Position numbers and translations under genes: made by a program
Part shown: positions 7,798 to 49,959 of the stretch, piece after piece
Numbering within the stretch: the stretch's first letter is position 1
How the letters are laid out: every line of letters starts with the position of its first letter
Assembly: GCA_041666325.1 (NCBI GenBank)
Contig: JBAYHC010000001.1
Location: forward strand, 201,708 to 265,707
From: Patescibacteria group bacterium
GTDB taxonomy: Bacteria > Patescibacteriota > UBA1384 > XYA2-FULL-43-10 > 1-14-0-10-43-13
DNA: 64,000 nucleotides
Reading direction: 5' to 3'
Notes under the pieces: model-generated
What the model was told of the DNA's origin: nothing
The model's database searches: none
The model's input: only the letters and a program-made list of their open reading frames with translations

Positions 7798-8265
7798 CTT
7801 AGTCCTGTTCGATTAATTATTATCTGTGCACACTCAAAATAACCATCTTCACCTCATGAAATGATTAGTGCCGCAGAACCCTACAGAGATGTTGGAAACA
7901 CCTTACATCTCTACTAAAGTCAGAGGCACTAGGAAAAAATGACGACTTTTTAATGATAGCGTCCAGCATGATCATGATCAAGTGATCGTTATCAACATAC
8001 GGCATTTTCTGAGCAAGCGCTTGATGTTTTGTAATTATTGTTCAACAATCAGCCCCTGATTCGGGCTCTAACGACTCACTGTAACTTTGTCAGCATTGAC
8101 ATACATGAATTTTTATGTTACTATTTATACATATAGTTTTAGATTAATGTTTATGCAACACAGCATAAATGATAATATATAGGCATCAAATCTTTATTGA
8201 GCCCGTGTTAAATTGAACTGCATTTGATAAAGGCCATAATAACTAACCACTAATAGGACTTATCA

Positions 8266-9336
8266 ATGGACGCCAAAACACAACTACAAGAGTACAAGCA
8301 AAAATTAGATATTGAGCTCAATAAATACTTGACCGCAAAAGTTCAAGAGGCAGATAGAATATCTCCACTGACCAGAGAACTAATGGAGTACATTGCCGAC
8401 CTAACGCTCCGTGGCGGAAAGCGAATCAGGGCCGCACTCATGTACTATAGCTATGTTGCCCATGGCGGCAAGAACACTGATGAGGTGCTTTTGGCTTCGA
8501 TGTCGATGGAACTCTCAGAGACATACCTTCTTATCCACGACGACATTATGGATAATGACTCACTACGCCGTGGAGGTATGACGATCAATACGTCATATCG
8601 TCAAATCGGAGAGAACCTTTATCACGACAAGATCAATACACGCAATTTTGGTAATTCCATGGCCATGCTTGCAGGTAATGTTGCTTGTGCTCTCAGCAAC
8701 GAACTCATAGCGCGCTCAAATTTTGACAAAAAAGATATCGTCCGAGCACTAGATGAGCTTAACCGGGTCTATGTTGTCGAGCAGTACGGCCAAATGCTTG
8801 ACGTTCTTTCACAGTTAAGGGAAAACATTACAACCAAAGATGTACTATTGGTTCACCAATTAAAAACTGCCCCCTATACATTTGAGGGTCCACTCAGAAT
8901 CGGGGCCATTTTAGCCGGCGCCGACGAGAAATCACTGCAGAAATTAAGCGACTACGCCATTCCGCTAGGAATTGCGTTTCAAATTCAGGACGATATCCTC
9001 GGCATGTTCGGATCAGAGGAAAAATTAGGCAAACCGGTAATCTCAGATCTAAAGGAGGGCAAAAAAACCCTTCTTATTCTGAAAGCATTGGATAGGGCGA
9101 CAGCCAGGCAGAGAGAGATAATCGAGATCAATCTTGGCAACAAGAAGACTACGATGAATGGACTGAAGGATGTCAGAGAAGTGATCAATCAAACAAAATC
9201 TCTCGACTATTCAAAGGCAATGGCCAAGAAGCTAGTCGAGGAAGCCGTCTCAGCCATGAACTTACTCAAATTAAAAAAAGAAGGAAGTGTATTCCTTCAA
9301 AATATCGCAGATTATATGATTAACCGAGAATACTAG
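8266..9336 (+). CDS. Polyprenyl diphosphate synthase (GGPP/FPP synthase family, IdsA/IspA-like)
   Basis: First Asp-rich motif LIHDDIMDNDSLRRG and second Asp-rich motif FQIQDDILG of trans-isoprenyl diphosphate synthases. Confidence 0.85.
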   Translation: MDAKTQLQEYKQKLDIELNKYLTAKVQEADRISPLTRELMEYIADLTLRGGKRIRAALMYYSYVAHGGKNTDEVLLASMSMELSETYLLIHDDIMDNDSLRRGGMTINTSYRQIGENLYHDKINTRNFGNSMAMLAGNVACALSNELIARSNFDKKDIVRALDELNRVYVVEQYGQMLDVLSQLRENITTKDVLLVHQLKTAPYTFEGPLRIGAILAGADEKSLQKLSDYAIPLGIAFQIQDDILGMFGSEEKLGKPVISDLKEGKKTLLILKALDRATARQREIIEINLGNKKTTMNGLKDVREVINQTKSLDYSKAMAKKLVEEAVSAMNLLKLKKEGSVFLQNIADYMINREY

Positions 9337-17120: not shown

Positions 17121-18908
17121 TTAATATCTAATCTGAATCTCACTTATCAATTTTTCAATAGCCATCGGTCCCTTGTCGCCCTCACCATAACGCCGAACAG
17201 CGACCTTGTTGTCACCGACTTCTTTGTCGCCAACAATTAGCATATAGGGAATCTTCTGTATCTCAGCGTCACGGATCTTGCGTCCGATCGACTCACTTCT
17301 TAAATCTATCTCAACCCTTACGCCTCGCACCTGTAAACTTTCGCCTATACTATTTGCATATTCCTGATGCCGGTCAGCAATCGGCAAGACAATGGCCTGG
17401 ACTGGGGCAAGCCACACCGGAAATGCTCCGGCGTAGTGCTCAATAAGTAAACCGATAAAGCGCTCAAATGAGCCAAACAACGCACGGTGGAGCATATATG
17501 GCTGTTCCTCTTCGCCTTTTTCATTAACAAAGGTCATGTTGAAACGCTCCGGCAAGTTGAAATCGAATTGCAGAGTCGACAACTGCCACTCGCGCCCAAG
17601 AACATCCCGGACCTTGAAATCAAGTTTTGGCCCGTAAAAAGCAGCCTCACCCAACTCCTCTTTGAAGGACAAGCTTTTTTCAGTGGCGACTTCGCGCAAA
17701 ACTTGCTCCGTGAACTCCCAGCCTTCATCGTTTCCGGCATACTTACTCTTATTGGCTGGATCACGAAGCGAGAGATAGACATTGACGGAATCCAAATCGA
17801 AGCCGAATGATTTGTAAATAAACAAAATAAAATCAACGACCCGCTTAAGCTCGCCTTTCACCTGATCTTTGCGGCAAACGATATGAGCATCGTCTTGAGT
17901 AAAGCCACGAACGCGCGTTAGCCCAGAAAGTTCGCCTGTCTTTTCAAATCGATAGACCGTGCCTATCTCAGCCCAACGAAAAGGAAATTCTCGATAAGAG
18001 TGGGGCGAATTCTTGTAAATCTGAACATGAAATGGACAGTTCATCGGCTTCAAAAGATACTCTTCAGATTTTTCCACCTTACGCTCAAGCTGACGGTCTT
18101 CCAGACTCTGACCGGCTTCCATTGGCGGATACATGCTTGAATTATAGAAGCCCCAATGACCTGATTTTTCCCACAAACGACGATTGCCAATATGAGGACT
18201 GCGAACAAGTTGGTACCCATTTTTCAGGTGCTCTTTGTACCAGAAATCCTCGATCACACGCCAAATAATAGCACCTCTTGGGTGCCACAAGACTAGCCCA
18301 AGGCCGACCTCTTCATCAATATGAAATAAGTCAAGCTCTCGTCCAAGTTTACGATGATCCCGTTTCTCCGCTTCCTCACGGTTTTTCAGATATTGCTCAA
18401 TACCTTCCCTTGATTCGAAGGCCAGGCCATAAATCCGGGTCATCATCGAGTTCTTCTCGCTCCCCTTCCAATATGCTCCGGCAATTTTGTCCAATTTCCA
18501 GCCAGCACCCTTGAGGTCCTTGGTCGATTCGACATGAGGACCAGCGCAAAGATCAACAAAATCGCCACTCTGATAAATCGAAACTTCTGTCTCGCCACTT
18601 GCTTCTAAATCTTTAATCAATTCAACCTTATATGGCTGGTTTTCAAACTGCTTACTCGCGGACCTGCTTACAAGCTTACTGGCCTTGAAGCTTGCGCCTG
18701 AATTAATAATCTCCCTCATCTTCTTCTCTAGCTTCGGTAAATCCTCAGCAGATAGCGCCATTGGCAATTCAAAATCATAATAAAAACCTGTATCGATGGC
18801 CGGACCGATCCCAAGTTTGACTTCGGGAAACATGTCCACAACTGCCATAGCCAGAACATGGCTTAATGAGTGACGCACTGTCTCAATTGGATATTTTTTT
18901 TGCTCCAT
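17121..18908 (-). CDS. thrS: Threonine--tRNA ligase (short form lacking the N-terminal TGS extension)
   Basis: Class II core with HRALFGSFERFIGLLIEHYAGAFPVWLAPVQ and a C-terminal anticodon-binding domain. Confidence 0.9.
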   Translation of the reverse strand: MEQKKYPIETVRHSLSHVLAMAVVDMFPEVKLGIGPAIDTGFYYDFELPMALSAEDLPKLEKKMREIINSGASFKASKLVSRSASKQFENQPYKVELIKDLEASGETEVSIYQSGDFVDLCAGPHVESTKDLKGAGWKLDKIAGAYWKGSEKNSMMTRIYGLAFESREGIEQYLKNREEAEKRDHRKLGRELDLFHIDEEVGLGLVLWHPRGAIIWRVIEDFWYKEHLKNGYQLVRSPHIGNRRLWEKSGHWGFYNSSMYPPMEAGQSLEDRQLERKVEKSEEYLLKPMNCPFHVQIYKNSPHSYREFPFRWAEIGTVYRFEKTGELSGLTRVRGFTQDDAHIVCRKDQVKGELKRVVDFILFIYKSFGFDLDSVNVYLSLRDPANKSKYAGNDEGWEFTEQVLREVATEKSLSFKEELGEAAFYGPKLDFKVRDVLGREWQLSTLQFDFNLPERFNMTFVNEKGEEEQPYMLHRALFGSFERFIGLLIEHYAGAFPVWLAPVQAIVLPIADRHQEYANSIGESLQVRGVRVEIDLRSESIGRKIRDAEIQKIPYMLIVGDKEVGDNKVAVRRYGEGDKGPMAIEKLISEIQIRY

Positions 18909-18921
18909 TCCAGTTTCCTTT

Positions 18922-18986
18922 TGTCATCCTGAACTTGATTCAGGATCCACTATCTTATAGATTCCGGATCAAGTCCGGAATGACAC
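18922..18986. repeat. Small palindromic element with terminal inverted repeats TGTCATCC...GGAATGACA, enclosing two hairpins; it lies in the thrS 5' leader
   Basis: The inverted repeats and two inner stem-loops (cctgaacttgattcagg; ccggatcaagtccgg) are seen in the sequence. A second copy lies at 20864-20972. Confidence 0.4.
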
Positions 18987-19257
18987 AGGGCATACAAAAA
19001 GACCCTATGGTACAGGAGTCTCTTGGAGACGGTTCCATCCTGCTTGGGTCTTAATTCACCTGTTCGCTCAGGCCTGCGTTGTGTCTCCAGGTTGGTGAAT
19101 CCTATCAACAACACAAATAATAATGTACTGATACTATACCAACTATCTGACTCAAGTGCAATATTTCGGTTGCAGCAATTAATTAGCATCTAATTAACTC
19201 TTGTAACCGGGCGCCCCGCGGATCGGGGCGCCACGTGATGTGACTTGTCGGCAGCCC

Positions 19258-20415
19258 TTAGTGGGTTGCCTCCTCCACCCGCACCTGCGGGCGTTCTGCT
19301 GGCCTCCAGGCCGGCTTGGTCTTCGACTTGACGGTCGTCATCCAGTCCCCATTGCTGTCCTGGGTGACGTAGATGACGGTACCGTCGACCTTGGCCGGGG
19401 CGATGGAGGCCTTCTTGGTCTTCTTGGCCCCAGGCACCGGTGCGCCAGTGATCCGACTGTCGCGGAGACGGTCCCGCGCGAACTCATCTGGCACCTCGCC
19501 AACCAACTTGTAGTCAAGAGCGTTGGCCGAGGCGCCTTGCCTCGTCTCCTTGGTAATGTAGACGATCACTCCGGCCCAGGCCGGGGTATCGAGACCGTAG
19601 CCACTCGCCTCACCGACCGACTTGACGTTCAGGTGTGTCCAGCCATAGTCGTCGGCCTTAATGCGATAGACCCGATGGTTGTCGACGTCGACGTAGCTGG
19701 GCCACTGTGATAGCGGCAGCCACGGCGACGCAAACCGCTGGTTGTGGGTGGTCAAGAGGTTGATGTCCACACCCTTCCCCACCACCACACCGAACTCGCT
19801 GAGGCCATTGAGCCTGACAGCCGCCTCCTCGAGGCAGCCGACTGGCTCGCGCTCCTGTCCCCAGGACGCCTCAGGCACGCCCTGGCTGCCAGCGGTCGTT
19901 TCGTTCGGCACCGCCCGGCGCAGAGTGGCCACGTTGTTGGTCTGGCCATCGCTCAGGGGCGCGCTCAACGAAAGCTCGATCTCGGTGCTGCCGTCAGCTT
20001 TCCTGCTCTGGCCGATGGCGCGCACCAGGTAGAGATTCCCCCCCATCTTGAGGCCGGCGTAGCGCCCCGCGAAGGGGAACCAACCCGGGCCATCGAACAG
20101 GTCGGCCAGGTCGGGATCGAGTTTGCTGGGGTCTACCACGGTCGTTACCACCTCGACACCACCCTCGCTCGGTTGCCTCTGCAGGTCAACGGCGAAGGTA
20201 GCGGTCAGGTGCTTGTCGCCGACCTGGTTGAAGATGATCAGGTCGCCCTTGACCTTGGGCGCTTCCGGCGAATTCGGCGCGGGCGGCTCAAGGTTGCCGG
20301 AAGCCTGCTGCGGGGTTGGTGCCTTCGGCGCCGTATCCCCAGTTGAACCCTTCTTGCAGCCGGCCGCCAGCGTGGCGGCGGCGATCAGCGGGACAACAAA
20401 CCAGGTGTAACGCAT
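19258..20415 (-). CDS. Lipoprotein of unknown function encoded on a compositionally foreign (about 65% GC) segment
   Basis: Signal peptide plus lipobox (VVPLIAAATLAAGC). The region 19.2-20.5 kb is far more GC-rich than its flanks, and a GC-only hairpin (ggcgccccgcggatcggggcgcc) follows the stop. The start was chosen at the second Met. Confidence 0.55.
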   Translation of the reverse strand: MRYTWFVVPLIAAATLAAGCKKGSTGDTAPKAPTPQQASGNLEPPAPNSPEAPKVKGDLIIFNQVGDKHLTATFAVDLQRQPSEGGVEVVTTVVDPSKLDPDLADLFDGPGWFPFAGRYAGLKMGGNLYLVRAIGQSRKADGSTEIELSLSAPLSDGQTNNVATLRRAVPNETTAGSQGVPEASWGQEREPVGCLEEAAVRLNGLSEFGVVVGKGVDINLLTTHNQRFASPWLPLSQWPSYVDVDNHRVYRIKADDYGWTHLNVKSVGEASGYGLDTPAWAGVIVYITKETRQGASANALDYKLVGEVPDEFARDRLRDSRITGAPVPGAKKTKKASIAPAKVDGTVIYVTQDSNGDWMTTVKSKTKPAWRPAERPQVRVEEATH

Positions 20416-20817
20416 CTCCGATCTCCTTCCCGAACTTCTCACGGTCTCGCCAAGGGGGCGGACCGATGCCTACCGATCAAGTTACTATCGGCCTGCAATA
20501 AGCACGAAGATCGCACTTACGAACAAGCCGATCGTAGTAATTGTCAAAGATCACGAAACCAACCCTCACCAAAAAACCGTATTAGTATATCATACTTTTT
20601 CACTTTTGTCAACATTTGTCACCGTGAACCCAGAAATTGGAGGCTAAAACTTAGCTAATTCCGTCATCCTGAACGAGTGGTAACGAAGTGAAGGATCTAG
20701 CGAAGCGAAATGAAAAAGGCTCAATACACACGGCTGCGCCTAGACTTTTCGCCTCCGGCTCAGAATGACTTAATAAATTGGATCAAATTTCTGAGTTCAG
20801 GGTTGTCAATGTGAAAA

Positions 20818-21005
20818 CCCGTGAATCAAAAAACTGATTGTCTCTGGAGTTGATTTGTTTCTATGTCATCCCAGACTTCCGCCCAGACCTCGGCTCGGTC
20901 TGATCGAGGCGGGTGATCTGGGATCCAGTCTCAAATTGCTTCTGGATCCTCGGGTCAAGCCCGAGGATGACAGCCTGGAAAAGAAAAAGTTTTTAGATTC
21001 ACGGG
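20818..21005. repeat. MITE-like element of about 188 bp, bounded by 18-bp imperfect terminal inverted repeats (cccgtgaatcaaaaaact / agtttttagattcacggg), with an inner TGTCATCC...GGATGACA palindromic module
   Basis: The terminal inverted repeats match 17 of 18 positions as reverse complements. The inner element (20864-20972) is related to the one in the thrS leader. Confidence 0.4.
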
Positions 21006-21059
21006 CAAACCAAAAAATAGCCTGCTTTGAAGCGGCAATAAAATCATGATTAGACCAAT

Positions 21060-21470
21060 CTATTTTTCTTGCAAGACACTCTTAGCAAGAGATCTGTACT
21101 GTTCACGCATTGGCGCGTCTCTCAGCGCGTCTGCATCAAGCCAGGCATACTCGCTGTGCTCATCGCTTAGCCGAACATTACTCAGGTCTGCCTCACACCG
21201 GAAAACCAAGACGATAAATTGATAGTTTGTCGAGTCGACCGTGGCCGCAAAATCCCAAGCATCGATAATGTTTCCCATCACAACGTTATCGACACCCAAT
21301 TCCTCTTGGAATTCTCGCTTCAAGGTTTCTTCGGGGTGCTCTCCAAAGTCAATCCGGCCGCCAGGCAGCTCCCAATTACCCCGTTGATCGCGAACCATGA
21401 AAATGCGACCGTCCTTTTTGACCAGCGCCTTGACTGTAACTCGTTGAATATTGTGATTATTGCTTGTCAT
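21060..21470 (-). CDS. NUDIX hydrolase
   Basis: Nudix box GGRIDFGEHPEETLKREFQEELGV. Confidence 0.8.
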   Translation of the reverse strand: MTSNNHNIQRVTVKALVKKDGRIFMVRDQRGNWELPGGRIDFGEHPEETLKREFQEELGVDNVVMGNIIDAWDFAATVDSTNYQFIVLVFRCEADLSNVRLSDEHSEYAWLDADALRDAPMREQYRSLAKSVLQEK

Positions 21471-22026
21471 ATTTCATGACTTCATCATTAAGCACTTCCA
21501 AATTCACGCCACATTGGGCGAAAACCCGGCGCGATTCTTGTGCATTGTGGTAACGATTTTGGCAAACAACCCGTTTAATGCCAGCATTAACCATCATCTT
21601 GGCACAAACCGGACACGGCTCGAGTTTCATATAGATCGTACCACCATCGATAGAAACACCCTTCTTGGCGGCTTGAGCAATAGCGTTTTGTTCGGCATGG
21701 ACTGTCCGAACACAGTGCTCAGAAACAGAACCGTCCGGATTCAATCGTTTTTGATATTGGTGGCCGGCATCATCACAATGGTCATCGCCAGCAGCAGAAC
21801 CAACATAACCCGTTACCAATATTTGCCTGTCTTTAACAATCACGCAGCCAGTCCGACCGCGATCGCACGTGCCGCGCTGCGAAACAGCATTGACCACTTC
21901 CATAAAATACTCATCCCAAGTAGGACGAACATGTTTGTGTGTCGGTATGTCACTATCTTCTAGCTTGGCTTTTCTCTGCGGCATATGTGCCCTCCAAGTG
22001 AATAATGAGTTATGAATCTTGGACAA
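21457..22026 (-). CDS. comEB: dCMP deaminase (ComEB-like cytidine/deoxycytidylate deaminase)
   Basis: Zinc-binding HAEQNAI and PCPVCAKMM motifs; TWDEYFM N-terminal block. Confidence 0.8.
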   Translation of the reverse strand: MSKIHNSLFTWRAHMPQRKAKLEDSDIPTHKHVRPTWDEYFMEVVNAVSQRGTCDRGRTGCVIVKDRQILVTGYVGSAAGDDHCDDAGHQYQKRLNPDGSVSEHCVRTVHAEQNAIAQAAKKGVSIDGGTIYMKLEPCPVCAKMMVNAGIKRVVCQNRYHNAQESRRVFAQCGVNLEVLNDEVMKYDKQ

Positions 22027-39885: not shown

Positions 39886-40221
39886 TCAGACACCCTTCCA
39901 GGTTGAAGTGTGGTTGTAGCTATTTTTAACATAAGGCAAAAGTTTAATCACGCTATCGGTATCAAATGGGATTTTTATCTTAAAGCCAATGGTTTTGTTG
40001 CCGATAATCTCCGGACCTGCTTGCCAATCTTGTTCTAGAATTTTTCGGTCTTCCGGAGTGACACGGGAAAGAATGAGAAAGTCGCCGTCAATCGAGGCAA
40101 ATTCACGGCCATTCACATAATATCTGGTCCGGCTCAGTTGCTTCTTCCGGGTTACACCTGGCCAGCGATACACTTCATTTTCAAAAATCCGCTGAGCTTT
40201 TATTGTCATGGTGTGCACCAT
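39886..40221 (-). CDS. Hypothetical protein
   Basis: An ORF of 111 aa with a plausible coding composition; no family recognised. Confidence 0.4.
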   Translation of the reverse strand: MVHTMTIKAQRIFENEVYRWPGVTRKKQLSRTRYYVNGREFASIDGDFLILSRVTPEDRKILEQDWQAGPEIIGNKTIGFKIKIPFDTDSVIKLLPYVKNSYNHTSTWKGV

Positions 40222-40337
40222 ACATAGCTATTTCAAGACAATTCTATCACAGCTACATCTGGTTGTATAAAACAGCAGGAGATGATGACCTTCGGGACAA
40301 TTTGATTGGGTGGGAACGCCGAAATACATTCGTATTT

Positions 40338-40380
40338 CCACCAAAAAATGACCTCAAATTTTGAAGTCATTTTTTGGTGG
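40338..40380. repeat. 43-nt near-perfect palindrome (ccaccaaaaaatgac...gtcattttttggtgg) downstream of the OLD-family gene
   Basis: The 15-bp arms are exact reverse complements and the central spacer is itself palindromic. Confidence 0.6.
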
Positions 40381-40587
40381 ACACGGGCGATAATTTTTGG
40401 AACACTTTCTTCGAAAAGATTTTTGAATGGGCTCCGCTGTTGCGCCAGATTAACCACACACAGAATATCCCAATTCTGGCCAGATAATCAGCCACCAGAT
40501 GCAAATAGAACACAGTATAGATATATTTAGCTTATCTAGATACGATCCCAAAGTTGTTGCCAATCTTCTCTGAAGGTATCAGCTCTA

Positions 40588-42582
40588 TCAATCTTTGAGC
40601 ACGTATTTCAAAATTTCTCTAATCGGTTTTTTGATTCCCCTGGCAGAGTTTAATGATTTCACTATCCCTATCGCAAATTCCACTTTATCGGTAACCGAAC
40701 CGCCCCCAGAAAAGCAATTTTCCAAACAGCCATTTTCTAGAACAAAAATCATTTCCTGTTCTCTAAGATTTTTAAGGAGGTTTTTAATATTGGCAGATAA
40801 GATAATTCTTTTTCTGATAGAAATTGCCCTGGTTTTGATAATTTTATCTGTAAGAGAATCAACTGCTTTTAGAAAATCTTCTTTTGGAAGCTCTTTTTTG
40901 GTTTTAATTAGATTAAACAAGCTAGCTCCGTCATAACTTCTAATCAGAACGTCCTTTAGTTTGGTAGTATTAAGACTATACAAATTATCGATCTCAGTAG
41001 ATATTGAGCTAAGTTCGGTCTTAATCTGATCGGATTGCAACAATGACCTTTCTTTTGATAAGTCCTTTAAAATATCAAGGTCTGCCACGATGTAGTTTTT
41101 AATTTTCCAGGTGTTCAGGAACTTTCTATACTTTAAAAGGTTATTTTTGCTTCCAACTGGCAATACCTCAATGACCTCATCGGATCGATGAACTCCTCTA
41201 AGCAATGAAAGCGACTTGGAAAATACCAGCTGGTCAGAGATGCCCTCCACGAGGATGACCTTATCAGCAAAGAAAACTTTTTCGTTGTTCGAAGAATTAA
41301 TTATTTGCAGAAGGTCTTTTACTGATGAACTATCGAGTAGTGACTTATTCGGCTTCAGAATCTTGCTACAATCATTATGTTTGTATATACGATATGTTGA
41401 CTGAATAATCGGCGGTACGATGATCTGAGGTGAATGAGTAATAATCAAGAATTGCAAATTGTACGTAACTGAAAGCTCTTGTATTAAATCTGTCAGCACC
41501 TTTTGCCACTGTGTGTGTTGGTGCAGCTCTGGCTCGTCTAGCAAAACCAAACCGTCTTTCAGTTCTGAAAGAACAATCCCCGAGATTAAACTAAAAAATT
41601 CTTTCTCGCCAGAACTCAATTTGATCGGCATTCCATTTAGGCGAAAGAATCGTAAACGATATTCGTGATGATAAATAATTTTTTGATCGATTACCTCGAA
41701 AGACATTGAGAGGTATCTCTCTAGCACTTTTCTGAATGCAGTCAAAATTTTACTGTTTTTATTTTGGTCATACAATCTAACGATGTGCTGGTAACTAGTA
41801 TCAACTATGCCGATATAAGTATCCTTGGACTGGTTTAGACCTTTTGCAAAATTCTTGTCAATATTGTTCTGTGTTAAATCAACAACGATTTCTTTCTGAA
41901 CCTGATTTACGTTTCGGTGGGGACCTATGTATCTAAAATTTGGAGCAATTTTAATATTGCTTGAGAGAGCCGATATCTCGTACAAAACATTAAAGTATGG
42001 AAGAATTTCAAAAAACCGTTGAACAATTTCCGACAACTCTGGCTTGTCAGAATAAGCGCCAATAATTGAGTTGCTAGCTATCACAATTTTTAAAGTAGTT
42101 CCAATCAAAGATTCAAAGACATCATCGTAAAAAAATCTCTCGATACTGTTGGCCACCTGTCCCGAATCTTGGAAATCCTTTTTAAGAAATAAAACTAAGT
42201 CTTCCTTAAATTTCGCAATTTCTTTCAAAATATTGATGTCTTCTTCCTTAATTGAAAAATATAGTTCCAGCGATGACTCTTCGGAGGTATGAGAGTAGTG
42301 CCTTTCAAACATCTCTGCAATTAGGTTGGGATCCCAATTATCAAACTGTAGCTTATAATGATAACCATAGTTAGCTGAGTTCGGGTTGGCCCGTTCTGTG
42401 TTATAAGTGATCGTAACGTGCTTATAGATTACTGAAGAAATCGCCCCTTGTATTAATTCAAACAGATTGCTCTTACCTCCACCGTTTGGTCCAACGAAAA
42501 CGTTGAGTCCGTCTCCAAAAAGTACCTCTTCGGCTGGATAGTAGCTTTTCAGGTTTTTGACAATCGCCCTATTTAGTTTCAT
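40588..42582 (-). CDS. OLD-family nuclease: N-terminal ABC-type ATPase (AAA_21-like) fused to a C-terminal Toprim domain
   Basis: Walker A GPNGGGKSNLFE, Walker B LVLLDEPELHQH, H-loop ITHSP; Toprim motifs ILVEGISDQ and VADLD. Confidence 0.75.
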   Translation of the reverse strand: MKLNRAIVKNLKSYYPAEEVLFGDGLNVFVGPNGGGKSNLFELIQGAISSVIYKHVTITYNTERANPNSANYGYHYKLQFDNWDPNLIAEMFERHYSHTSEESSLELYFSIKEEDINILKEIAKFKEDLVLFLKKDFQDSGQVANSIERFFYDDVFESLIGTTLKIVIASNSIIGAYSDKPELSEIVQRFFEILPYFNVLYEISALSSNIKIAPNFRYIGPHRNVNQVQKEIVVDLTQNNIDKNFAKGLNQSKDTYIGIVDTSYQHIVRLYDQNKNSKILTAFRKVLERYLSMSFEVIDQKIIYHHEYRLRFFRLNGMPIKLSSGEKEFFSLISGIVLSELKDGLVLLDEPELHQHTQWQKVLTDLIQELSVTYNLQFLIITHSPQIIVPPIIQSTYRIYKHNDCSKILKPNKSLLDSSSVKDLLQIINSSNNEKVFFADKVILVEGISDQLVFSKSLSLLRGVHRSDEVIEVLPVGSKNNLLKYRKFLNTWKIKNYIVADLDILKDLSKERSLLQSDQIKTELSSISTEIDNLYSLNTTKLKDVLIRSYDGASLFNLIKTKKELPKEDFLKAVDSLTDKIIKTRAISIRKRIILSANIKNLLKNLREQEMIFVLENGCLENCFSGGGSVTDKVEFAIGIVKSLNSARGIKKPIREILKYVLKD

Positions 42583-42599
42583 TATTTCTCTCAGAATGA

Positions 42600-43442
42600 T
42601 TAATGGACGTAGATTTCTTTGCTTTTTATTCTATCTTTTAGATTTACTCTCTCAACGACACTTCTCAACAGTTGCTCGCTATGGGAATATACAAATCGGT
42701 CACAATTTAAGGCAACGTTATCGTTGATATGGCGACAATGTCTTCTGTCTGCTTTGTAAAAGGCAACATCCTTTCCCTCATCAAACATAGCAAGATAGAA
42801 ACTCTTTGAAAGCGGAATTGCTTTCACGGCACCTTTTGTAATAACGCCAACCCCACGATAAGGGCTGTTTTCAACGGGCGAAAACAAGACAAATGGATTA
42901 TCTGAAGTAATGTATGCACTGCTTTGAGGAGCAAAAATAATTCTCCAGCTCATATGCGCAAAATACGAAGCCATTTCAGCGCTGATCTCTAGTAAAAGCT
43001 TTATTTCATATTCTCTGCTCTGTTCAACCTTCACTTCAAGCCTATTGCCACCAGGCCTCTCAAACATTTGAGCCAATTTGGTTAATGCCGCTTCAGATAG
43101 TTCTTTGGTATGCTTTGAAAAATAAGGGACACGGTTCTTTTGCAAGGCGACGAAAAACGATAATTGTGCTTTTTCTTTTTCGCTCAGTGACTCACTCTTT
43201 TCGATTTTGCCGATGACGGCACTGGCGTCACCCTCAATTTCTGAAAACTTTTTCTCTAGATCATAGTGATACTTGCCATCTTCCCCAAGATAGCGATAGT
43301 AATTTGAAATAACAGCTGTGTCCTTAATGCCCAAGTGCTTATATTCATTTGTGGTCCTATCATAAACCCAAATATACCCATCTGTTGCAAAACGAGATAG
43401 GACCATTTGCGGTAAGAAATGATGTCTTTTTGGTTCACCCAT
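42600..43442 (-). CDS. DUF4238-family protein
   Basis: About 280 aa with an N-terminal HHFLPQ motif typical of DUF4238 (HHY[IV]PQ); lies 17 nt upstream of the OLD-family gene on the same strand. Confidence 0.55.
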   Translation of the reverse strand: MGEPKRHHFLPQMVLSRFATDGYIWVYDRTTNEYKHLGIKDTAVISNYYRYLGEDGKYHYDLEKKFSEIEGDASAVIGKIEKSESLSEKEKAQLSFFVALQKNRVPYFSKHTKELSEAALTKLAQMFERPGGNRLEVKVEQSREYEIKLLLEISAEMASYFAHMSWRIIFAPQSSAYITSDNPFVLFSPVENSPYRGVGVITKGAVKAIPLSKSFYLAMFDEGKDVAFYKADRRHCRHINDNVALNCDRFVYSHSEQLLRSVVERVNLKDRIKSKEIYVH

Positions 43443-43524
43443 AGGTTAATTCAGCAACAAGGAACGAAATAAGCGCTTACTCTAATTTGGTTTTTGTATT
43501 ACTAAGCATTCCGATTGCTAGCCG

Positions 43525-44112
43525 CTACTCATACAGCTTTAATCTAATGGAGTCAATTTTCCTCAGTAGGTCGTGTTGAGTCGAAACCATTTGCTGAATT
43601 TGAAGCTCTGTATATCTAGCCCTTCTGTTTTTGAAGGGATCATTTGTGACAGCCATCTTGTATTTCAGGAAGCAATTTTCAAGATTATCATCGAAGCAAA
43701 AATCTTCAATAATTTTCGCTTCTGTGAATTTTTTTATATCGTTAAGCTGATGCATTGCGCAGTTGAAATCGTAGTCAACTCGCCCTGCTTTTTGATCTGA
43801 CGGGTTGCTGGTGTAATCATTCGCTGAATTCAAAGTTTTTTCAATTGCACTGCGAAAATCTGCCAAGAATCCCAAAACAATTTCTTTTTTCTTGGAACTA
43901 TCACTTACACTCTCACTTATATAGTGGGTCACAAACAAGGCGACAATAATCGTTACAAGCAGATTAAGCAAGTTGGAAAAAGAAAAATCCCAGAACTTAT
44001 CTGGCAAAATATTCCATCGAAGCACAAGAGCAGAAATGACAAAGCCAATAACAAAAAAGATAAAGGAAAGCGATATTCGAGCCGAATTTTTCCTGATTAT
44101 CCTTTTCATCAA
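43525..44112 (-). CDS. Hypothetical protein with two N-terminal TM helices
   Basis: TM helices ISLSFIFFVIGFVISALVL and LLNLLVTIIVALFVTHYI; its start overlaps the stop of the upstream STAS-like gene. Confidence 0.45.
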   Translation of the reverse strand: MMKRIIRKNSARISLSFIFFVIGFVISALVLRWNILPDKFWDFSFSNLLNLLVTIIVALFVTHYISESVSDSSKKKEIVLGFLADFRSAIEKTLNSANDYTSNPSDQKAGRVDYDFNCAMHQLNDIKKFTEAKIIEDFCFDDNLENCFLKYKMAVTNDPFKNRRARYTELQIQQMVSTQHDLLRKIDSIRLKLYE

Positions 44113-44414
44113 GCATTCTCTATATAACTTTCTATCTCGCGTTTTAGAATCGAATTTGTTGTGATTAAATTTATTCTGTTCTGCACTGCATTCTTGTCTT
44201 TAATCACCCTGACAAGGCCGCCGAAGGCCTCCTCGAAGAAGGAAGTCGGGTATCCTGCTAAGCCATCCAGATATACGTTGATAATTTCGTTTGATTTTGT
44301 TTGGAATAATGGCTCGAGAAATTTTTCTCTGAATTCCTCACCAGAAAAATCACTCTTTTGCTTAAATCTTCCACCAGGAGAAATCGTAAAATCTTTAATG
44401 AAGACGTTTTTCAT
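44109..44414 (-). CDS. DUF4325 (STAS-like, anti-sigma-factor-antagonist-like) protein
   Basis: About 100 aa with VYLDGLAGYPTSFFEEAFGGLV resembling the STAS-like DUF4325 core; lies directly downstream of a GHKL ATPase. Confidence 0.5.
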   Translation of the reverse strand: MKNVFIKDFTISPGGRFKQKSDFSGEEFREKFLEPLFQTKSNEIINVYLDGLAGYPTSFFEEAFGGLVRVIKDKNAVQNRINLITTNSILKREIESYIENA

Positions 44415-44430
44415 TTCAAAATTCCTAAAA

Positions 44431-45441
44431 TTAAAGTTGAAAATCCCACGAAAACAAAGTTCCTCGAAAGCCTTCTTTTATAGAGATGTGTTGGCTAAAG
44501 TGCACAGCACTAATAAAACCACGATTGGATACTATTTTCAAATTATCTATTTTCTTTCTATTCGAAATCTCATATATTTGGGGCAGCCCCTTACCTCTAT
44601 TTTTTTGTTTGGTTCTAGATCTCTTGAATTTTCCCTCAAGCGCGGATCTAATTAAGTCGGCGTCAGATCTAATAAGATATTTGAGTACAATTTCAGCAAA
44701 GTTCTTTCTCACGGTTGTCGGAATCCCTTGTCCATTATCCAGGAACGCAAAACTTATCTTGCGAATATCTGCGTTGTAATATGCAGCGGTCCACCATTTG
44801 GGAAGCGGCGAATCAGATAGATACGCGTGCTCGTTGGTGTTATTCATTAGTTCAACAAGCGTTTCATATATTCCTTCCGTGGACCTCTTGGGACCATTCA
44901 TTTTGCTTGCAACAAATTCAACAACCTTTAAGACAACGGCGCCCTGTGTCCTCTCGCCTGATTGTATTGAAAAGATATCATCATTCATTCGAGGGGGATC
45001 CCCTCTTACGAGTTTGACGAATTTATAGAATCCGGAATCACGGAATATCATCCTGCATTTTTCCTCTCGCGGCTCATTCCCCTGAATGCTAGGGGCCACC
45101 CGTTTAGTGCCGAAAAACTCGAGGAGAGACAGGAGATACAGGATTGCGTCAAGGGTAATTTCACTCACAACCGAAAGATCAAGAAAAACAGAATAGCCCT
45201 TGTTGACGTTATTCTCAATTCTTCCACAAAATTCCAGAAAATGTTGGTGATCATTCAAGATACTGAAAACAGAAGGGGCGATAACTCTCTTGAAAATTCG
45301 AGATAGTTTAGTTGCTTTAATAAGTCCACGCTTCTTGCGCTTTCTTATTAAGTTCTTTTTAGCGATTATCCTAGATCGCTTCTTCCATTTTTCGGTGACC
45401 TTTTTCATTTGGTATAATAGTATCAAACGAGGGCTAGTCAT
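44431..45441 (-). CDS. GHKL (HATPase_c) ATPase with a basic N-terminal extension
   Basis: N-box ELMNNTNEHA, G1 DNGQGIP, G2 GKGLPQI. Confidence 0.65.
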   Translation of the reverse strand: MTSPRLILLYQMKKVTEKWKKRSRIIAKKNLIRKRKKRGLIKATKLSRIFKRVIAPSVFSILNDHQHFLEFCGRIENNVNKGYSVFLDLSVVSEITLDAILYLLSLLEFFGTKRVAPSIQGNEPREEKCRMIFRDSGFYKFVKLVRGDPPRMNDDIFSIQSGERTQGAVVLKVVEFVASKMNGPKRSTEGIYETLVELMNNTNEHAYLSDSPLPKWWTAAYYNADIRKISFAFLDNGQGIPTTVRKNFAEIVLKYLIRSDADLIRSALEGKFKRSRTKQKNRGKGLPQIYEISNRKKIDNLKIVSNRGFISAVHFSQHISIKEGFRGTLFSWDFQL

Positions 45442-45469
45442 ACTACCTAACTAACCCATTTGTCTTCTT

Positions 45470-46000
45470 ATGCAATGCCAATTTGAAAAATCAGACGGTA
45501 AGCAGTGTGGGGGCTACTCAGTGAGCAGCAGCCATTTTTGCTTTTCGCACGATCCAAAAAGCAAGAAAAAGCACTTGAGGGCAGCTAAGAAGGGTGGATT
45601 GGCTTTGAAGAGTAATAGTACTGTTTTAGCGGAAGAAATTGATCTAAGTTCGTCTGAAGGGCTAGAGAACGTACTAAAAGATACGCTTAGCAGAGTAAGA
45701 CGCGTAAACCCTGATGGCTCAATCGAATTAAAAGCGGCTTATTGTATAACCCTCATTGTGTCAAAACTTCAAGAAATACATCTGAAAAGCTACCCAGAAG
45801 ACAGGCTTAAGGAAATTGAACGCAGAGAATTTGAACTAAGGGAGCAAGAGCGCGCAAGAGAAGCATCACACCAGAGACATAGTCGGCTTTGGGAAGAAAA
45901 CCCAGAAAAAGCAGCCGAAGAGATAATGGTTCACACTAACCTGCTGCTGAAACGCGCGTTAAGAGACCGTGAGTCAAGAAAACTCGGTATGAATATATAA
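45470..46000 (+). CDS. Hypothetical protein: N-terminal Cys/His cluster and charged coiled-coil C-terminus
   Basis: CQFEKSDGKQCGGYSVSSSHFCFSHD and an ERREFELREQERAREA-type charged segment. Confidence 0.4.
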   Translation: MQCQFEKSDGKQCGGYSVSSSHFCFSHDPKSKKKHLRAAKKGGLALKSNSTVLAEEIDLSSSEGLENVLKDTLSRVRRVNPDGSIELKAAYCITLIVSKLQEIHLKSYPEDRLKEIERREFELREQERAREASHQRHSRLWEENPEKAAEEIMVHTNLLLKRALRDRESRKLGMNI

Positions 46001-46004
46001 ACCT

Positions 46005-46607
46005 TTAATCCAATTCCTGAATAGCACTCTTTAGGGCTTCCGCGTTTACTGATTTGATGCCCTCCCTCATCAAAGCTTTCAATGAAATGCTTTTCTTGTT
46101 TTTGATAAGCTCGATTAGCCTATCCTTTGTGAAGACGAAAAATTCCCATTGAGTGAGATCTAAGGGGTTAGCCGTATCGTGGGAGTCTGCCGAGAAGTAA
46201 CAAATAACGAATAAATCCGCATTAAAGCTTGGCGTCTCTTCCATAATCCCCGTCAATGGGTTCCATTTACGGGTTGGAGATAGAGCTACTTTAGGCTCAG
46301 ATAACCGCTTTTGAGCCCACGCCTGGAGTTGAGACATTGTTTTGATTTCAATGGTTTTGCCCTCTTTTGTTTTGAGATCGTACGCATCCCAAGGGATTCT
46401 TGGTTTATCATCACAACCCAAAAGAACAGCCACAACATATTCAGCAAGCACTGCTCTCGTAGTGTTTTGCATTAAGTCAGAGTACGCCCATTGCCAAAAA
46501 TCAACGATAGTTCGGTTTAAGCAATTGCTTGTTTCGTTATTATAAAAAGCAGAACCACATTCCAGTTTAGAGACTGGCTTTGGGGTCAGTAAAAGATCTT
46601 TATTCAT
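46005..46607 (-). CDS. PD-(D/E)xK nuclease-fold-like protein, hypothetical
   Basis: Candidate motif WDAYDL...(x11)...IEIKT, i.e. D...ExK; otherwise unrecognised. Confidence 0.45.
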   Translation of the reverse strand: MNKDLLLTPKPVSKLECGSAFYNNETSNCLNRTIVDFWQWAYSDLMQNTTRAVLAEYVVAVLLGCDDKPRIPWDAYDLKTKEGKTIEIKTMSQLQAWAQKRLSEPKVALSPTRKWNPLTGIMEETPSFNADLFVICYFSADSHDTANPLDLTQWEFFVFTKDRLIELIKNKKSISLKALMREGIKSVNAEALKSAIQELD

Positions 46608-46917
46608 TTTTTCCTTGGTCGGATTTGTTTTGTGGCAGAGAGCAAAAAGCCCGCCGCCACTAGCAGCCCCGTAGGGCTACACGTACATCTTTCGATGCAC
46701 GACCGACCAAGGTCCGTGACGACGAGCTCACTACCTTGGTCGGAATTTTCCACCGTGCTCACTATTATCTAATGAGGTTAGGTGGTTTCTCGGTTGTGTT
46801 AACGACAGGAATTATAAAATTCCCTTATGCTTAATATAGCAGAAATTAGTCATTCCCTCAACCTTATCCACAGATATCAGTTTGAATATATTTATACATT
46901 AATGTATAAATTAAATA

Positions 46918-47682
46918 ATGGAAAAAGAAGGCACTGAAAAATTTAGCGATTTATGTAAGAAAAAATACTCGGCCAAAGAGGTTGGCATCTCTTATAGAAT
47001 TTTAAGCAGCTGGAGCTCTCTTGGCCTAATCAACCACCTGAGAGACAAAGAAAATGATTGGCATCGTTTTTCGGCTTTTGATCTGATTGAGATAAGAGTA
47101 TATGACGAGCTTCGGCAGGTTGGCTTTTCTGTGGAGAAGCTCTTAAAAATCAAGAAATTTTTACGCGCACAGTCAGTTCTAGCCATATTTTTCTCTGATT
47201 CGAATTTATCAAAAGAGTACGTCGAGGACCTTGGCAAGTCTACAATATTAGTTGAATCAATCTTGAGAACTGCAGCAGGAGAAAACATTTTTCTTGTTAT
47301 TGATAAAGATGCAGCAAATCCTATGTTTGCAGAAGAAACGATCGTGTATGAATTATTAGCGCAAGCGAATTCTATTTATAATGAGTATGGTGGCAACTAT
47401 TTGGTTCTGAGTGTCCGAACAATTCTTGAGAATGTTAGTGTACCATACGAAAAATCTAATCATAAGCTCGGAAAAGTGCTGACAGCAATTCTTGATTCCG
47501 AAGAACAATCAGAGATTAAACTTTTCGTTCAAGACTGTGAATTAAAGAAAGCAAAGCATACTCTATATGATGTTCCCCTTGGTACGAATATTACAGCTCT
47601 TATAAAACAACCCAACAGAAAAACTTCATTCAGCTCCAACAATAACGGTTCCGTCAAAATGAAAATTGAAGCTGAACTATAA
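46918..47682 (+). CDS. MerR-family HTH protein (possible excisionase or regulator of the element)
   Basis: YSAKEVGISYRILSSW...FSAFDLIEIRVYDELRQVGFSVEKLLKI resembles a MerR HTH; located upstream of the recombinase. Confidence 0.5.
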   Translation: MEKEGTEKFSDLCKKKYSAKEVGISYRILSSWSSLGLINHLRDKENDWHRFSAFDLIEIRVYDELRQVGFSVEKLLKIKKFLRAQSVLAIFFSDSNLSKEYVEDLGKSTILVESILRTAAGENIFLVIDKDAANPMFAEETIVYELLAQANSIYNEYGGNYLVLSVRTILENVSVPYEKSNHKLGKVLTAILDSEEQSEIKLFVQDCELKKAKHTLYDVPLGTNITALIKQPNRKTSFSSNNNGSVKMKIEAEL

Positions 47683-47761
47683 AAACTAGAATCCCTAGTT
47701 TCTTTTACCAACAGTTCAAGTAGCAGCGATCCTACTACGCGATCGAATCTGGTATGAGAAA

Positions 47762-47902
47762 ATGTTATCAATCGACGAGTGTAGAGATTATTTAAAAGAA
47801 TATAATTTAAGCGACGAAGAGATCGAAAGAATGAGGAACAATCTGCAAGGAATAGTTGAAAGTGTACTCGATTCCTATATCGAAGGATTCAAAAATGATT
47901 AA
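47762..47902 (+). CDS. Possible small acidic helical ORF (46 aa) overlapping the recombinase start
   Basis: MLSIDECRDYLKEYNLSDEEIERMRNNLQGIVESVLDSYIEGFKND; found by hand and not in the ORF track; weak support. Confidence 0.25.
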   Translation: MLSIDECRDYLKEYNLSDEEIERMRNNLQGIVESVLDSYIEGFKND

Positions 47903-49487
47903 CGATACAAACAAGGCACTAATTTATTGTCGGGTTTCTTCCCCGCGCCAGATTAAGGAGGGTCACGGCTTAGAAAACCAAGAACACAGGTGTAGACAGT
48001 ACGCAGTGGAGAAGAAGCTCAAAGTTGTCGAGGTATTCTCTGAAGACGAGAGCGCTAGCGGTGGCCTTTTTGACCGTCCTGCAATGAAAGAACTGCTCAA
48101 TTTTCTTGACAGGAATCAGTCAGAAAGATACTTCGTAATATTCGATGATCTAAAACGTTTTGCGAGAGATGTAGAGGTTCATTTTAGACTAAAGACTGAA
48201 TTGGTTAAACTGCGTGCAGTAAAGCTACGCTGTCTCAATTTTAATTTCGACGACAGCCCTGAAGGCAGGTTCGTTGAAACTATGTTTGCAGCCTGTGCTC
48301 AGCTCGAAAGAGAACAAAATAAGAGGCAGGTAATACAAAAACAAAAAGCACGACTGGAAAATGGCTACTGGACTTTTTATCCGCCAGCTGGCTATGAGTA
48401 TAAAAAATCGAGGGTGCACGGCAAGCTTCTATACCAAGTGCATCCATTGGCAGAAACGTTAGGCAAGGTCATCGAAGACTTCGCGACGAATCGTCTAATT
48501 GGGAAGGTAGACGTCGTCAGAAGGCTTGTAGAACTAGGTATTCTAAAAGAAAGTGCACCAGAAACAACTAATTTTAATTTTGTTAGAAGATTGCTAAGTA
48601 ATCCCATCTATGCGGGATTCATTGAATATAAACCTTGGCAAGTTCCAATAAGGAAAGGCCATCACAAGGCAGTTATTACCGAGGAAGTACACAGATTAGC
48701 TTTAAATAAAATGGAGAAACCTGAAAGAATGCCAAGGAATACTGATTCTTTGGAATGGCCATTAAGGAGACTGGTCGATTGCTCCATTTGTGGTAAACAA
48801 TACACCGGGAGTGCAAACCGAAGTAAGAATCCCGACAAACACTATCCGCATTATACGTGTAATAATAAATATTGCACTGCTAGTCCTAAAAACATCACTA
48901 AAGAAATCGTAGAGGAAAAATTCCTTAAACTTCTCAAGTCAATCGGGGCAGACAAACCTGTATTGGATTTGGCGAGGGCAATGATACTTCAGATGTGGAA
49001 GGAAAAGGAAAAAAATTTCAATACAAAGAAATCAAATGGTCTTAAGAGGATCGGGCAGATTGATGTAGAAATTGAGAGCTTTTTAAGCAGAATTCCGAAG
49101 GCAAAATCAGAGTCACTAGTTGCACTATATGAATCAAAAATTGACAAACTCGAGAATGAGAAAAAAGAAATTGAAAAAAGCTTGAAAAACAAAAAAGAAC
49201 CCAACCTAAACGAAGCAATAGATTTGGTTCTTAATTTCCTTGGAACACCCGCTGAATTCTGGAAATATGCAGACCTAGAAAGAAAAATATTAATTCATAG
49301 CCTGATTTTCATTAAAAACCCAGAATTCTCTCTAGAAACAGGTTTTGGAACACCTAATTTGTCTCTACCATTCTACATAAAGCACTATGTAATGGACCAG
49401 GATGATACGTTGGTGGAGGTGGAGGGAGTTGCACCCTCGTCCAAGAGGTTAAAAACTGCCTATTGTAGCAAGCTTAGCTCCGGTTGA
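47895..49487 (+). CDS. Large serine recombinase (resolvase domain, recombinase domain and zinc ribbon)
   Basis: Catalytic ALIYCRVSSPRQ; a recombinase-domain region; a C-terminal CSICGK...CNNKYC zinc ribbon. The start is set at the ATG preceded by aagga. Confidence 0.85.
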   Translation: MINDTNKALIYCRVSSPRQIKEGHGLENQEHRCRQYAVEKKLKVVEVFSEDESASGGLFDRPAMKELLNFLDRNQSERYFVIFDDLKRFARDVEVHFRLKTELVKLRAVKLRCLNFNFDDSPEGRFVETMFAACAQLEREQNKRQVIQKQKARLENGYWTFYPPAGYEYKKSRVHGKLLYQVHPLAETLGKVIEDFATNRLIGKVDVVRRLVELGILKESAPETTNFNFVRRLLSNPIYAGFIEYKPWQVPIRKGHHKAVITEEVHRLALNKMEKPERMPRNTDSLEWPLRRLVDCSICGKQYTGSANRSKNPDKHYPHYTCNNKYCTASPKNITKEIVEEKFLKLLKSIGADKPVLDLARAMILQMWKEKEKNFNTKKSNGLKRIGQIDVEIESFLSRIPKAKSESLVALYESKIDKLENEKKEIEKSLKNKKEPNLNEAIDLVLNFLGTPAEFWKYADLERKILIHSLIFIKNPEFSLETGFGTPNLSLPFYIKHYVMDQDDTLVEVEGVAPSSKRLKTAYCSKLSSG

Positions 49488-49959
49488 TTTATTCGAACAG
49501 GAGATAAGACCGGAACGGAAATCTACTGCTCTATCTCGAGTATATCTTAGGGCTTCACGCTAGAGAATCGATTGCCCGCAACTCGAAGTATGACACTCAT
49601 ACCCTCTAGTCGAGTAGCTAGAGGATGAGCGGTTGCCGTTATTTAAGCAGCAACTGGCGCAAGAGCAAAGCCGCTAAAAGCTGCTTTAACTCTGCTAACA
49701 AGTGAGTTTGCACTTGAGATTTTCCGGCAATTAAGGCTGCCAAGATCACCTGCTTGCTAGATCAGTTTTTAAAGTTCCTATTGTCGAAGCTAATACACCC
49801 CCGAACACATCTTATTATACCTAATATTGACAAAAAATCAACTTGCTCGACTCCGATTCTTGCAGTGGTCAAACCAAAACTAGACAATGTCGTTTCGAAA
49901 TGGTATAAATCTGTGGGCAGCAGAATACCTACTATTCTGCTGGATGAAGGAGAGACAAA

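Follow-up and report, generated by a model that had tools for sequence, protein, structure and literature searches.

What is the function of three tightly spaced genes that are carried together, beside an OLD-family nuclease gene, in the genome of a Patescibacteria bacterium? The genes, here called A, B and C in the order of transcription, lie at 43525–45441 of a 64,000-nucleotide stretch of contig JBAYHC010000001.1 (hereafter the window). An earlier note, made from the sequence alone, had described them as minus-strand open reading frames (ORFs) of 336, 101 and 195 amino acids (aa) for a GHKL ATPase, a STAS-like DUF4325 protein and a protein with two transmembrane (TM) helices, and the ORF coordinates confirm these positions and lengths. 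With about even confidence, and by homology, the triad would be a kinase-gated toxin-antitoxin or abortive-infection switch related to VapKSC, in which a membrane effector would stand where VapKSC has its PIN toxin.

A mobile three-gene cassette

Homologous triads are present at ~50 independent loci, prophages included, in at least seven phyla, and the three-gene arrangement is therefore not due to chance; the three genes are indeed conserved together elsewhere, as the earlier note had supposed. Genes were called in 33 viral contigs and 10 reference-genome contigs located with the kinase alignment; the 10 genomic loci come from a narrower, single-pattern alignment, and genomic prevalence is accordingly undersampled. 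The genomic loci belong to Patescibacteria, Bacteroidota, Bdellovibrionota, Ignavibacteria, Deltaproteobacteria, Spirochaetes and Firmicutes. A DUF4325-like gene directly follows the kinase gene in every locus with enough sequence, and the third gene, which usually overlaps the preceding stop codon, encodes 134–212 aa with one or two N-terminal TM helices (39 of 40 viral and other loci, 10 of 10 genomic loci). The same order recurs in nine annotated homologue contexts, where the kinase and DUF4325 genes are followed by a gene for a 168–191-aa protein without a recorded Pfam match and the flanks are always different.

Because the flanking genes vary between loci, the cassette is autonomous, and it is horizontally mobile. 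In the annotated contexts it is flanked by, among others, a VapBC-like pair, by a helix-turn-helix (HTH) gene with an integrase, by a resolvase with GmrSD, or by SIR2_2. Defence neighbours across the loci, the window included, are OLD, DUF4238, GmrSD, SIR2_2 and AbiGi, and neither OLD nor DUF4238 was found beside the triad in any homologous locus inspected. The five-gene block that the earlier note had drawn from the triad and the downstream DUF4238 and OLD genes is co-directional, but a five-gene operon acting as a functional unit was rejected on the variable context around homologous triads. At the closest homologous locus, in another Patescibacteria genome, the triad is followed at 7932–8721 by an overlapping gene for a 54-aa protein and by a gene for a 214-aa PIN-domain protein (Pfam E=3e-6); the PIN gene was considered as VapC-like and rejected, having no similarity to the VapC of VapKSC, and the two genes are an ordinary VapBC-like pair.

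The kinase family itself is large and merely unannotated. With clusters defined at 50% identity, an exhaustive profile search returned 5,147 cluster representatives (E<=1e-3), of which 1,686 reach E<=1e-30 and the best 150 are mostly near full length; a word-indexed search recovered only 22 clusters. The family corresponds in PHROGs to phrog_3364 ("unknown function"), and none of A, B and C has a match in PADLOC-DB v2 (E<=0.1), where the neighbouring OLD and DUF4238 genes alone are matched.

Protein A is a serine kinase with an internal STAS domain

Protein A consists of a polybasic helix (residues ~12–48), a STAS domain (~50–140) and an RsbW-type serine kinase domain (~156–336), and the term protein serine kinase suits it better than sensor ATPase; the earlier note had missed both its internal STAS domain and its polybasic helix. 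In an alignment of 20 homologues and in 150 cluster representatives of the family, the Bergerat-fold motifs are found as an N box (E197/N201/H205-A206), a G1 box (D235-x-G237-x-G239-I-P), a G2 box (R282-G283-K-G285-L-P) and a G3 box (G327-T328). These residues are near-invariant in both sets (E197, N201, H205, D235, G237, G239, R282-G283-K-G285 and G327-T328 being 94–100% conserved among the 150 representatives), so that the motifs are not degenerate on alignment, and a HisKA domain is absent, as the earlier note had said. The clear HATPase_c boxes that it had reported thus stand as motifs, but not as a Pfam assignment, the HATPase_c match of A being below threshold (E=0.15, 13 bits vs a cutoff of 26.4); sub-threshold matches to HATPase_c or HATPase_c_2 are found for 11 of the 20 homologues (best 0.0029). 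NCBIfam and PADLOC searches with A returned nothing significant, and PDB sequence searches with A, the profile of its alignment and the profile of B returned no match, the VapS–VapC entry 9Z7O apparently being too distant or outside the set.

An AlphaFold2 (AF2) model of A built from the alignment has a mean predicted local distance difference test score (pLDDT) of 85.5 and a predicted template modelling score of 0.79. The sole disordered (low-pLDDT) stretch in the model, residues 275–283, is at the expected site of the ATP lid. In a fold search, the C-terminal half of A is structurally nearest to the anti-sigma factors SpoIIAB, RsbW and UsfX which, together with the STAS-like nature of B, bears out the resemblance to RsbW/RsbV that had been proposed. 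The N-terminal extension is a single long helix (residues 4–37 in the AF2 model), and a basic extension is a family-wide property (median 64 aa, net charge +15.5, 31% K+R in the 150 representatives). Conserved residues of the internal STAS domain are P56, S60, D98, Y102, G121, P124 and G137-F138. Asp98 (codon 45148–45150) occupies the canonical phospho-serine position of STAS domains, where 89% of the family has Asp and VapK has Asn58. Asp98 could be a built-in phosphomimic that holds the internal STAS domain away from the active site.

Two kinases of comparable plan have been characterized. CapK (HTH-STAS-GHKL) is switched on by single-stranded DNA (ssDNA) and phosphorylates Ser54 of CapS (Chambers et al., EMBO J 2026, PMC13373217). 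Phosphorylation of CapS, a STAS-winged-HTH (wHTH) protein of ~181–184 aa, dissociates the repressor dimer and de-represses adjacent immune operons (PMC13373217). In the three-gene operon VapKSC, which protects against phage Bas42 by ~2 logs, VapK (STAS-GHKL) is proposed to phosphorylate the small STAS antitoxin VapS at S48, and the phosphomimetic S48E neither binds nor neutralizes VapC (PMC13373217). A transmembrane component is never mentioned in that paper, and a literature search found no other paper that mentions VapK or VapKSC; an older survey describes a PIN clade "transcriptionally coupled to DUF4325", which is probably VapC.

The VapK, CapK, VapS and CapS sequences were taken from the appendix table of the paper (PMC13373217) by optical character recognition; the table sequence of VapK is ~5 N-terminal residues shorter than the deposited model, and residues are mapped in the deposited numbering. 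Pfam has no match for VapK or CapK, as for A. In hhalign comparisons with the kinase family, VapK is aligned across both of its domains (261 columns, E 7.8e-6) and CapK is likewise matched (E 1.7e-7). VapK does not cluster with the family of A, and its relationship to the family emerges only when a profile is compared with the sequence. As judged from these sequence comparisons, A's kinase family is a distinct one with the same plan as VapK, and not its orthologue.

Protein B carries a candidate phospho-acceptor

Protein B is a bare DUF4325 STAS domain (PF14213; E=8.3e-11, 41.9 bits vs a cutoff of 23) that ends at residue 101 with nothing else attached, and VapS is likewise a DUF4325 protein (E=2.7e-17); the STAS-like assignment made earlier is therefore sound. 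B is the most conserved of the three proteins (median identity 43.5% among 32 distinct triad partners). Its motif is L-D-G-x2-G-Y-x-[S/T]57-S58-F59-x-E-E-x-F-G-G-L, in which Ser58-Phe59 is invariant in 32 of the 32 partners. Ser54 of CapS aligns exactly with Ser58 of B, and the counterpart of Ser48 of VapS is position 57 or 58, according to the method used. Ser58 (or Thr57) is thus a candidate phospho-acceptor.

A separate observation concerns phrog_5816, a 441-position phage profile of unknown function, which B matches at positions 343–437. Because the size of this profile equals that of the kinase plus its partner, the match suggests that some phages encode a kinase–DUF4325 fusion.

Protein C is a membrane protein with a predicted cytoplasmic bundle

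The two N-terminal TM helices expected of protein C are seen as hydrophobic segments at residues 13–31 and 43–65, with basic residues at the N-terminus and after the second segment, and the alignment places a conserved F-F/W in the short loop between them. In an AF2 model of medium confidence (pLDDT 75; helices 3–32 and 45–102), the second TM helix continues as a long helix, which forms a four-helix bundle together with three others; an A-T-x-x-x-F loop (T156, F160) in this bundle is conserved. The two-TM hairpin and its positive flanks suggest an N-in/C-in topology and, consequently, a cytoplasmic bundle.

Searches of Pfam, NCBIfam, PADLOC and PHROG gave no family for C or for 26 homologous third-gene products, and no PIN domain was matched in C. 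A homology search with the single sequence found only C itself, and a profile search found 11 distant relatives. C is the fastest-evolving component (median identity 23.8% vs 43.5% for B). Its best match in BFVD is a 168-aa uncharacterized protein of Caudovirales sp. ct0FJ5 with 16% identity. Because a kinase of this family is encoded by ct0FJ5 as well, and the third gene of a related locus (L057) likewise encodes exactly 168 aa, the fold of C is probably conserved even at this level of identity.

Placement in phages and prophages

The triad of Marinobacter phage AS1 encodes proteins of 371, 112 and 159 aa, of which the third has one TM helix, and is directly downstream of a CI-like repressor gene, on the same strand and opposite Cro. 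For Francisella phage KIRK, the published table has three entries between CI and the integrase: a hypothetical protein of 293 aa, a DUF4325 protein of 112 aa and a TM protein of 125 aa. Genes in such positions are expressed in lysogens, as is the case for lambda rexAB. In other cases, the triad lies beside phage replication genes and before the terminase, between holin and amidase beside AbiGi, or beside an ImmA-like module. Prophages of the human-associated Dialister invisus carry the cassette immediately upstream of the genes for the small and large terminase (WP_418477583.1; loci L057 and L058, cluster of P0018), and the cassette is seen on hundreds of metagenome contigs. The phage placements are either lysogeny-expressed or moron-like.

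Proposed mechanism and alternatives

What the present analysis establishes are the domain identities, the conserved motifs, the order of the genes and their contexts; every biochemical step of the model would follow by homology with CapK/CapS and VapKSC. In the resting cell, unphosphorylated B would bind the cytoplasmic bundle of C and keep C inert. Phage infection or DNA damage would then generate a signal that activates A, most likely a nucleic acid at the basic helix and/or the groove between the STAS and GHKL domains. Activated A would phosphorylate B at Ser58 (or Thr57), and phospho-B would release C, which might then oligomerize and compromise the membrane, so that growth would stop before the phage cycle is completed. 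This model retains the module of sensor, antagonist and membrane effector for abortive infection that the earlier note had put forward, and VapKSC provides an experimentally characterized relative (PMC13373217); the role of A is what changes, from sensor ATPase to kinase.

Several points weigh against this model. The relationship to the characterized kinases is distant, VapK and CapK scoring only 19–22 bits against the hidden Markov model of the kinase family (VapK 19.4). The aromatic residue for ssDNA activation (F54 in VapK, W68 in CapK) maps to Glu94 of A, in a column that is variable (N/E/K/S/Y/V/T/I) among the 150 representatives, and the trigger may therefore differ from that of VapK and CapK. 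B does not have the C-terminal helix (VapS residues 94–116) that is needed for inhibition of VapC, and the tail of VapS is unmatched in hhalign. The variable aromatic position, the missing helix of B and the basic helix of A together call for caution in transferring the VapKSC model; the signal is therefore likely a nucleic acid, but one sensed in another way than by CapK and VapK. No likeness of C to a known toxin or pore former was seen, since fold searches with its medium-confidence model gave only generic four-helix bundles, and no phosphatase that could reset the switch is encoded in the cassette. Finally, Streptococcus prophages carry the kinase and DUF4325 genes only, without a TM gene. 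In Streptococcus phage phiGBSVK-E1 (L013, 2764–4263), genes for a 298-aa kinase and a 99-aa DUF4325 protein follow the lysin gene at the prophage end, and a gene for a 66-aa CsbD-like protein (E=4.6e-12) follows after a 110-nt gap; the Javan and LYGO9 phages have the same two-gene version, and the Streptococcus prophage kinase matches HATPase_c_2 (E=2e-5). Because these prophages lack the TM gene, the kinase–DUF4325 pair can evidently work with another or a non-adjacent output.

An alternative is a classical partner switch, in which A sequesters C, unphosphorylated B competes for A and thereby frees C, and phosphorylated B represents the OFF state; the trigger would be a fall in kinase activity, such as through ATP depletion in infection, rather than kinase activation. 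The anti-sigma factors nearest to the kinase domain of A bind directly to the protein that is their output, A has additional surfaces that could bind C in its internal STAS domain and basic helix, and the lack of an encoded phosphatase is also in keeping with such a switch. This alternative is nevertheless unlikely: in the two characterized relatives it is the STAS protein that holds the output and phosphorylation that releases it (PMC13373217), and the translational coupling of B and C resembles that of an antitoxin-toxin pair. Alternatively, C may be non-lethal and act in superinfection exclusion or sensing, for example by blocking DNA entry or reporting envelope perturbation, with the A/B phospho-switch tuning it so that lysogens are protected without killing. 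In prophages, exclusion genes typically lie beside CI or the integrase, rapid evolution of C is expected if it contacts phage proteins, and C has no toxin-like features. On the other hand, an exclusion protein has no obvious need of a kinase and a STAS partner, the nearest characterized system is a toxin-antitoxin system, and many copies, that of the window included, are chromosomal or on non-phage islands, which makes a non-lethal C rather improbable. In a version of this idea to which a similarly small chance is given, the triad would be a device of the prophage immunity operon rather than a simple toxin-antitoxin, C being the phage-contacting exclusion protein or sensor at DNA entry and the polybasic helix sensing incoming nucleic acid at the membrane. 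This would amount to phosphorylation-controlled, Rex-like exclusion with a trigger unlike the ssDNA stacking of CapK and VapK, a doubtful proposition at present.

Two further explanations fit the data poorly. A and B might regulate the downstream DUF4238 and OLD genes upon DNA damage in the manner of CapK and CapS, since the triad is upstream of and co-directional with these genes, across an 82-nt spacer with no clear terminator. CapK and CapS are themselves upstream of immune operons (PMC13373217), and GmrSD follows the triad at one homologous locus (L005). However, B lacks the wHTH that defines CapS and A lacks the HTH of CapK, the genes downstream are different at each locus, with phage structural and housekeeping genes frequent among them, and the conserved gene C would be left without a role; this mode of control is very improbable. 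Regulation of the neighbouring nuclease, which the earlier note had offered as a second possibility, was accordingly dropped for the bare STAS domain of B, and the triad as a regulator of OLD was rejected on the variable context and the absence of a DNA-binding domain in B. Least probable is an ordinary RsbW/RsbV stress module acting on a sigma factor whose gene lies elsewhere in the genome of the host. It would account for the fold similarity to SpoIIAB/RsbW and STAS antagonists, but neither a sigma factor nor a PP2C phosphatase was found among the island genes scanned with Pfam, in agreement with the earlier note as regards the sigma factor, or in the annotated homologous loci. A host-specific sigma factor is also hard to square with carriage by mobile elements and phages of unrelated phyla, and the conserved membrane partner would be unexplained. 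The model of a kinase-gated switch with a membrane effector is thus the favoured one.

Gene junctions and the surrounding island

The coordinates of the triad and of the surrounding features are summarized in Table 1.

Table 1. Window coordinates of the triad, its predicted parts and the island that carries it
Feature	Position	Strand	Length	Remarks
Gene A ORF	44431..45441	(-)	336 aa	Polybasic helix + STAS + RsbW/SpoIIAB-type GHKL serine kinase
A, probable start Met12	45408	(-)	325 aa	
A, aa 12-48, polybasic N-terminal helix	45298..45408	(-)		KKVTEKWKKRSRIIAKKNLIRKRKKRGLIK...
A, aa 50-140, internal STAS domain	45022..45294	(-)		Beta-alpha repeats
A, aa 156-336, GHKL (Bergerat-fold) kinase domain	44434..44976	(-)		
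A-B spacer	44415..44430	(-)	16 nt	AGGA Shine-Dalgarno-like element; direct sequence reading
Gene B, DUF4325 STAS-like	44109..44414	(-)	101 aa	Putative VapS/CapS-like kinase substrate
B, codons Thr57-Ser58	44241..44246	(-)		Candidate phospho-acceptor, [S/T]-S-F motif
Gene C, inner-membrane protein	43525..44112	(-)	195 aa ORF	Putative effector
C, aa 13-65, TM hairpin	43918..44076	(-)		TM1 13-31, TM2 43-65; hydropathy, AF2, alignment
C, aa 66-195, cytoplasmic four-helix bundle	43528..43917	(-)		Predicted
DUF4238 gene and OLD-family ATPase-TOPRIM nuclease gene	40588-43442	(-)	280 aa and 664 aa	
Large serine recombinase ORF	47856-49487	(+)		
tmRNA gene	49411-49802	(-)		
Low-GC island integrated at tmRNA gene	~40200-49802			GC 0.38 vs 0.45

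Because the public call (P0001) starts there and the N-termini of homologues line up there, A probably begins at Met12. The junctions of the triad were read directly. The A–B spacer, earlier given as 17 nt, was read as one nucleotide shorter, and its AGGA is 8 nt ahead of the ATG of B. The B–C junction reads GCTTGATG; the 4-nt overlap reported for it holds if C starts at TTG, but is reduced to 1 nt (TGATG) if C starts at the ATG taken by the public call (P0023, 194 aa). A promoter and terminator scan around the triad gave background level only and is uninformative.

The low-GC stretch bounded by the serine recombinase and the gene for transfer-messenger RNA (tmRNA) is an integrated island, in agreement with the mobile, defence-like context noted earlier. 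The 3′ end of the recombinase gene overlaps that of the tmRNA gene by 77 nt. No att-like direct repeats were found flanking the island, which is not unexpected for a serine recombinase. Carried on the island are OLD and DUF4238, the triad, a gene for a MerR-like protein and three unknown ORFs. The DUF4238 and OLD genes, downstream of the triad and in the same direction, are 17 nt apart and may be a two-gene unit of their own; the former product matches DUF4238 in Pfam (E=1.4e-44) and DUF4238-Pers in PADLOC (2.9e-7), and the latter contains AAA_15 and an OLD-like TOPRIM domain and matches Old in PADLOC (1e-26). Because they are absent beside other triads, tightly coupled to each other and matched by defence models of their own, they are best seen as separate defence cargo of the same island. 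The island is an example of several defence systems set compactly together at the tmRNA gene in a Patescibacteria bacterium with a small genome.

The island also contains a LOOT RNA (Rfam RF03000) at 46662–46784 on the minus strand, matched over the full-length model (71.5 bits vs a gathering score of 46.4). It is directly upstream of a 200-aa minus-strand ORF (46005..46607), and a terminator-like hairpin (46667–46653) is present at the 3′ end of the RNA. Elsewhere in the window, GC content at ~18000–22000 reaches a maximum of 0.57 (19–21 kb) vs a background of ~0.44, and no Rfam family was found there.

Significance and comparison with known systems

That a STAS-GHKL kinase and a STAS substrate can gate an immune output is already known (2026). 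New in the triad are the kinase family, which is another one, the membrane protein that stands where the PIN toxin would be, and probably the trigger; a possibly different infection signal is indicated by the polybasic helix and by the missing ssDNA-stacking aromatic residue. The cassette is abundant in prophages and missing from defence catalogues. If the model is correct, the phospho-switch of CapKS and VapKSC would extend to a far larger family (~5,100 clusters, found in many prophages, including those of Dialister invisus), the members of which have so far been annotated as hypothetical proteins only and missed by PADLOC. Nuclease and membrane effector alike would then be gated by one kind of switch, and a well-defined candidate would be added to the catalogues of defence systems, together with a function for DUF4325 and phrog_3364.

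The triad most closely resembles VapKSC, with which it shares an operon of three genes arranged as kinase, small STAS protein and effector, a STAS-GHKL kinase with neither HisKA nor HTH, a DUF4325 partner in which a serine is conserved where STAS helix 2 starts, and frequent proximity to other defence genes. It differs in that VapC is a PIN RNase whereas C is a TM hairpin with a four-helix bundle, in that A has a polybasic N-terminal helix and VapK does not, and in that VapS has a C-terminal helix that reaches the active site of the toxin, which B lacks. With CapK/CapS, the triad shares a STAS-GHKL kinase with an extra N-terminal module, and the motif L-[DE]-G-x5-[ST]-S-F aligns residue for residue around Ser54 of CapS. 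The module is an HTH on CapK but a basic helix on A, the third gene is conserved in the triad, and CapS has a wHTH that B lacks, so that B cannot be a repressor.

The difference from the partner switches RsbW-RsbV and SpoIIAB-SpoIIAA is greater: the triad has neither a sigma factor nor a PP2C phosphatase, A is fused to a STAS domain of its own, the output is presumably the membrane protein, and the genes are carried by mobile elements and phages. Partner switches that act on other outputs are represented by SiaB-SiaC of Pseudomonas aeruginosa, where the SiaABCD system includes a PP2C phosphatase, has a diguanylate cyclase as its output and is chromosomal and not known to be phage-associated; the triad differs from these non-sigma switches in each of these respects. 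In the lambda prophage, RexA and RexB are co-transcribed with CI and act as a sensor in the cytoplasm and an effector in the membrane, the latter collapsing the membrane potential. In Marinobacter phage AS1 the triad is found at the equivalent place, and the likeness is an analogy only, because there is no sequence or fold relationship and Rex contains neither a kinase nor a STAS domain.

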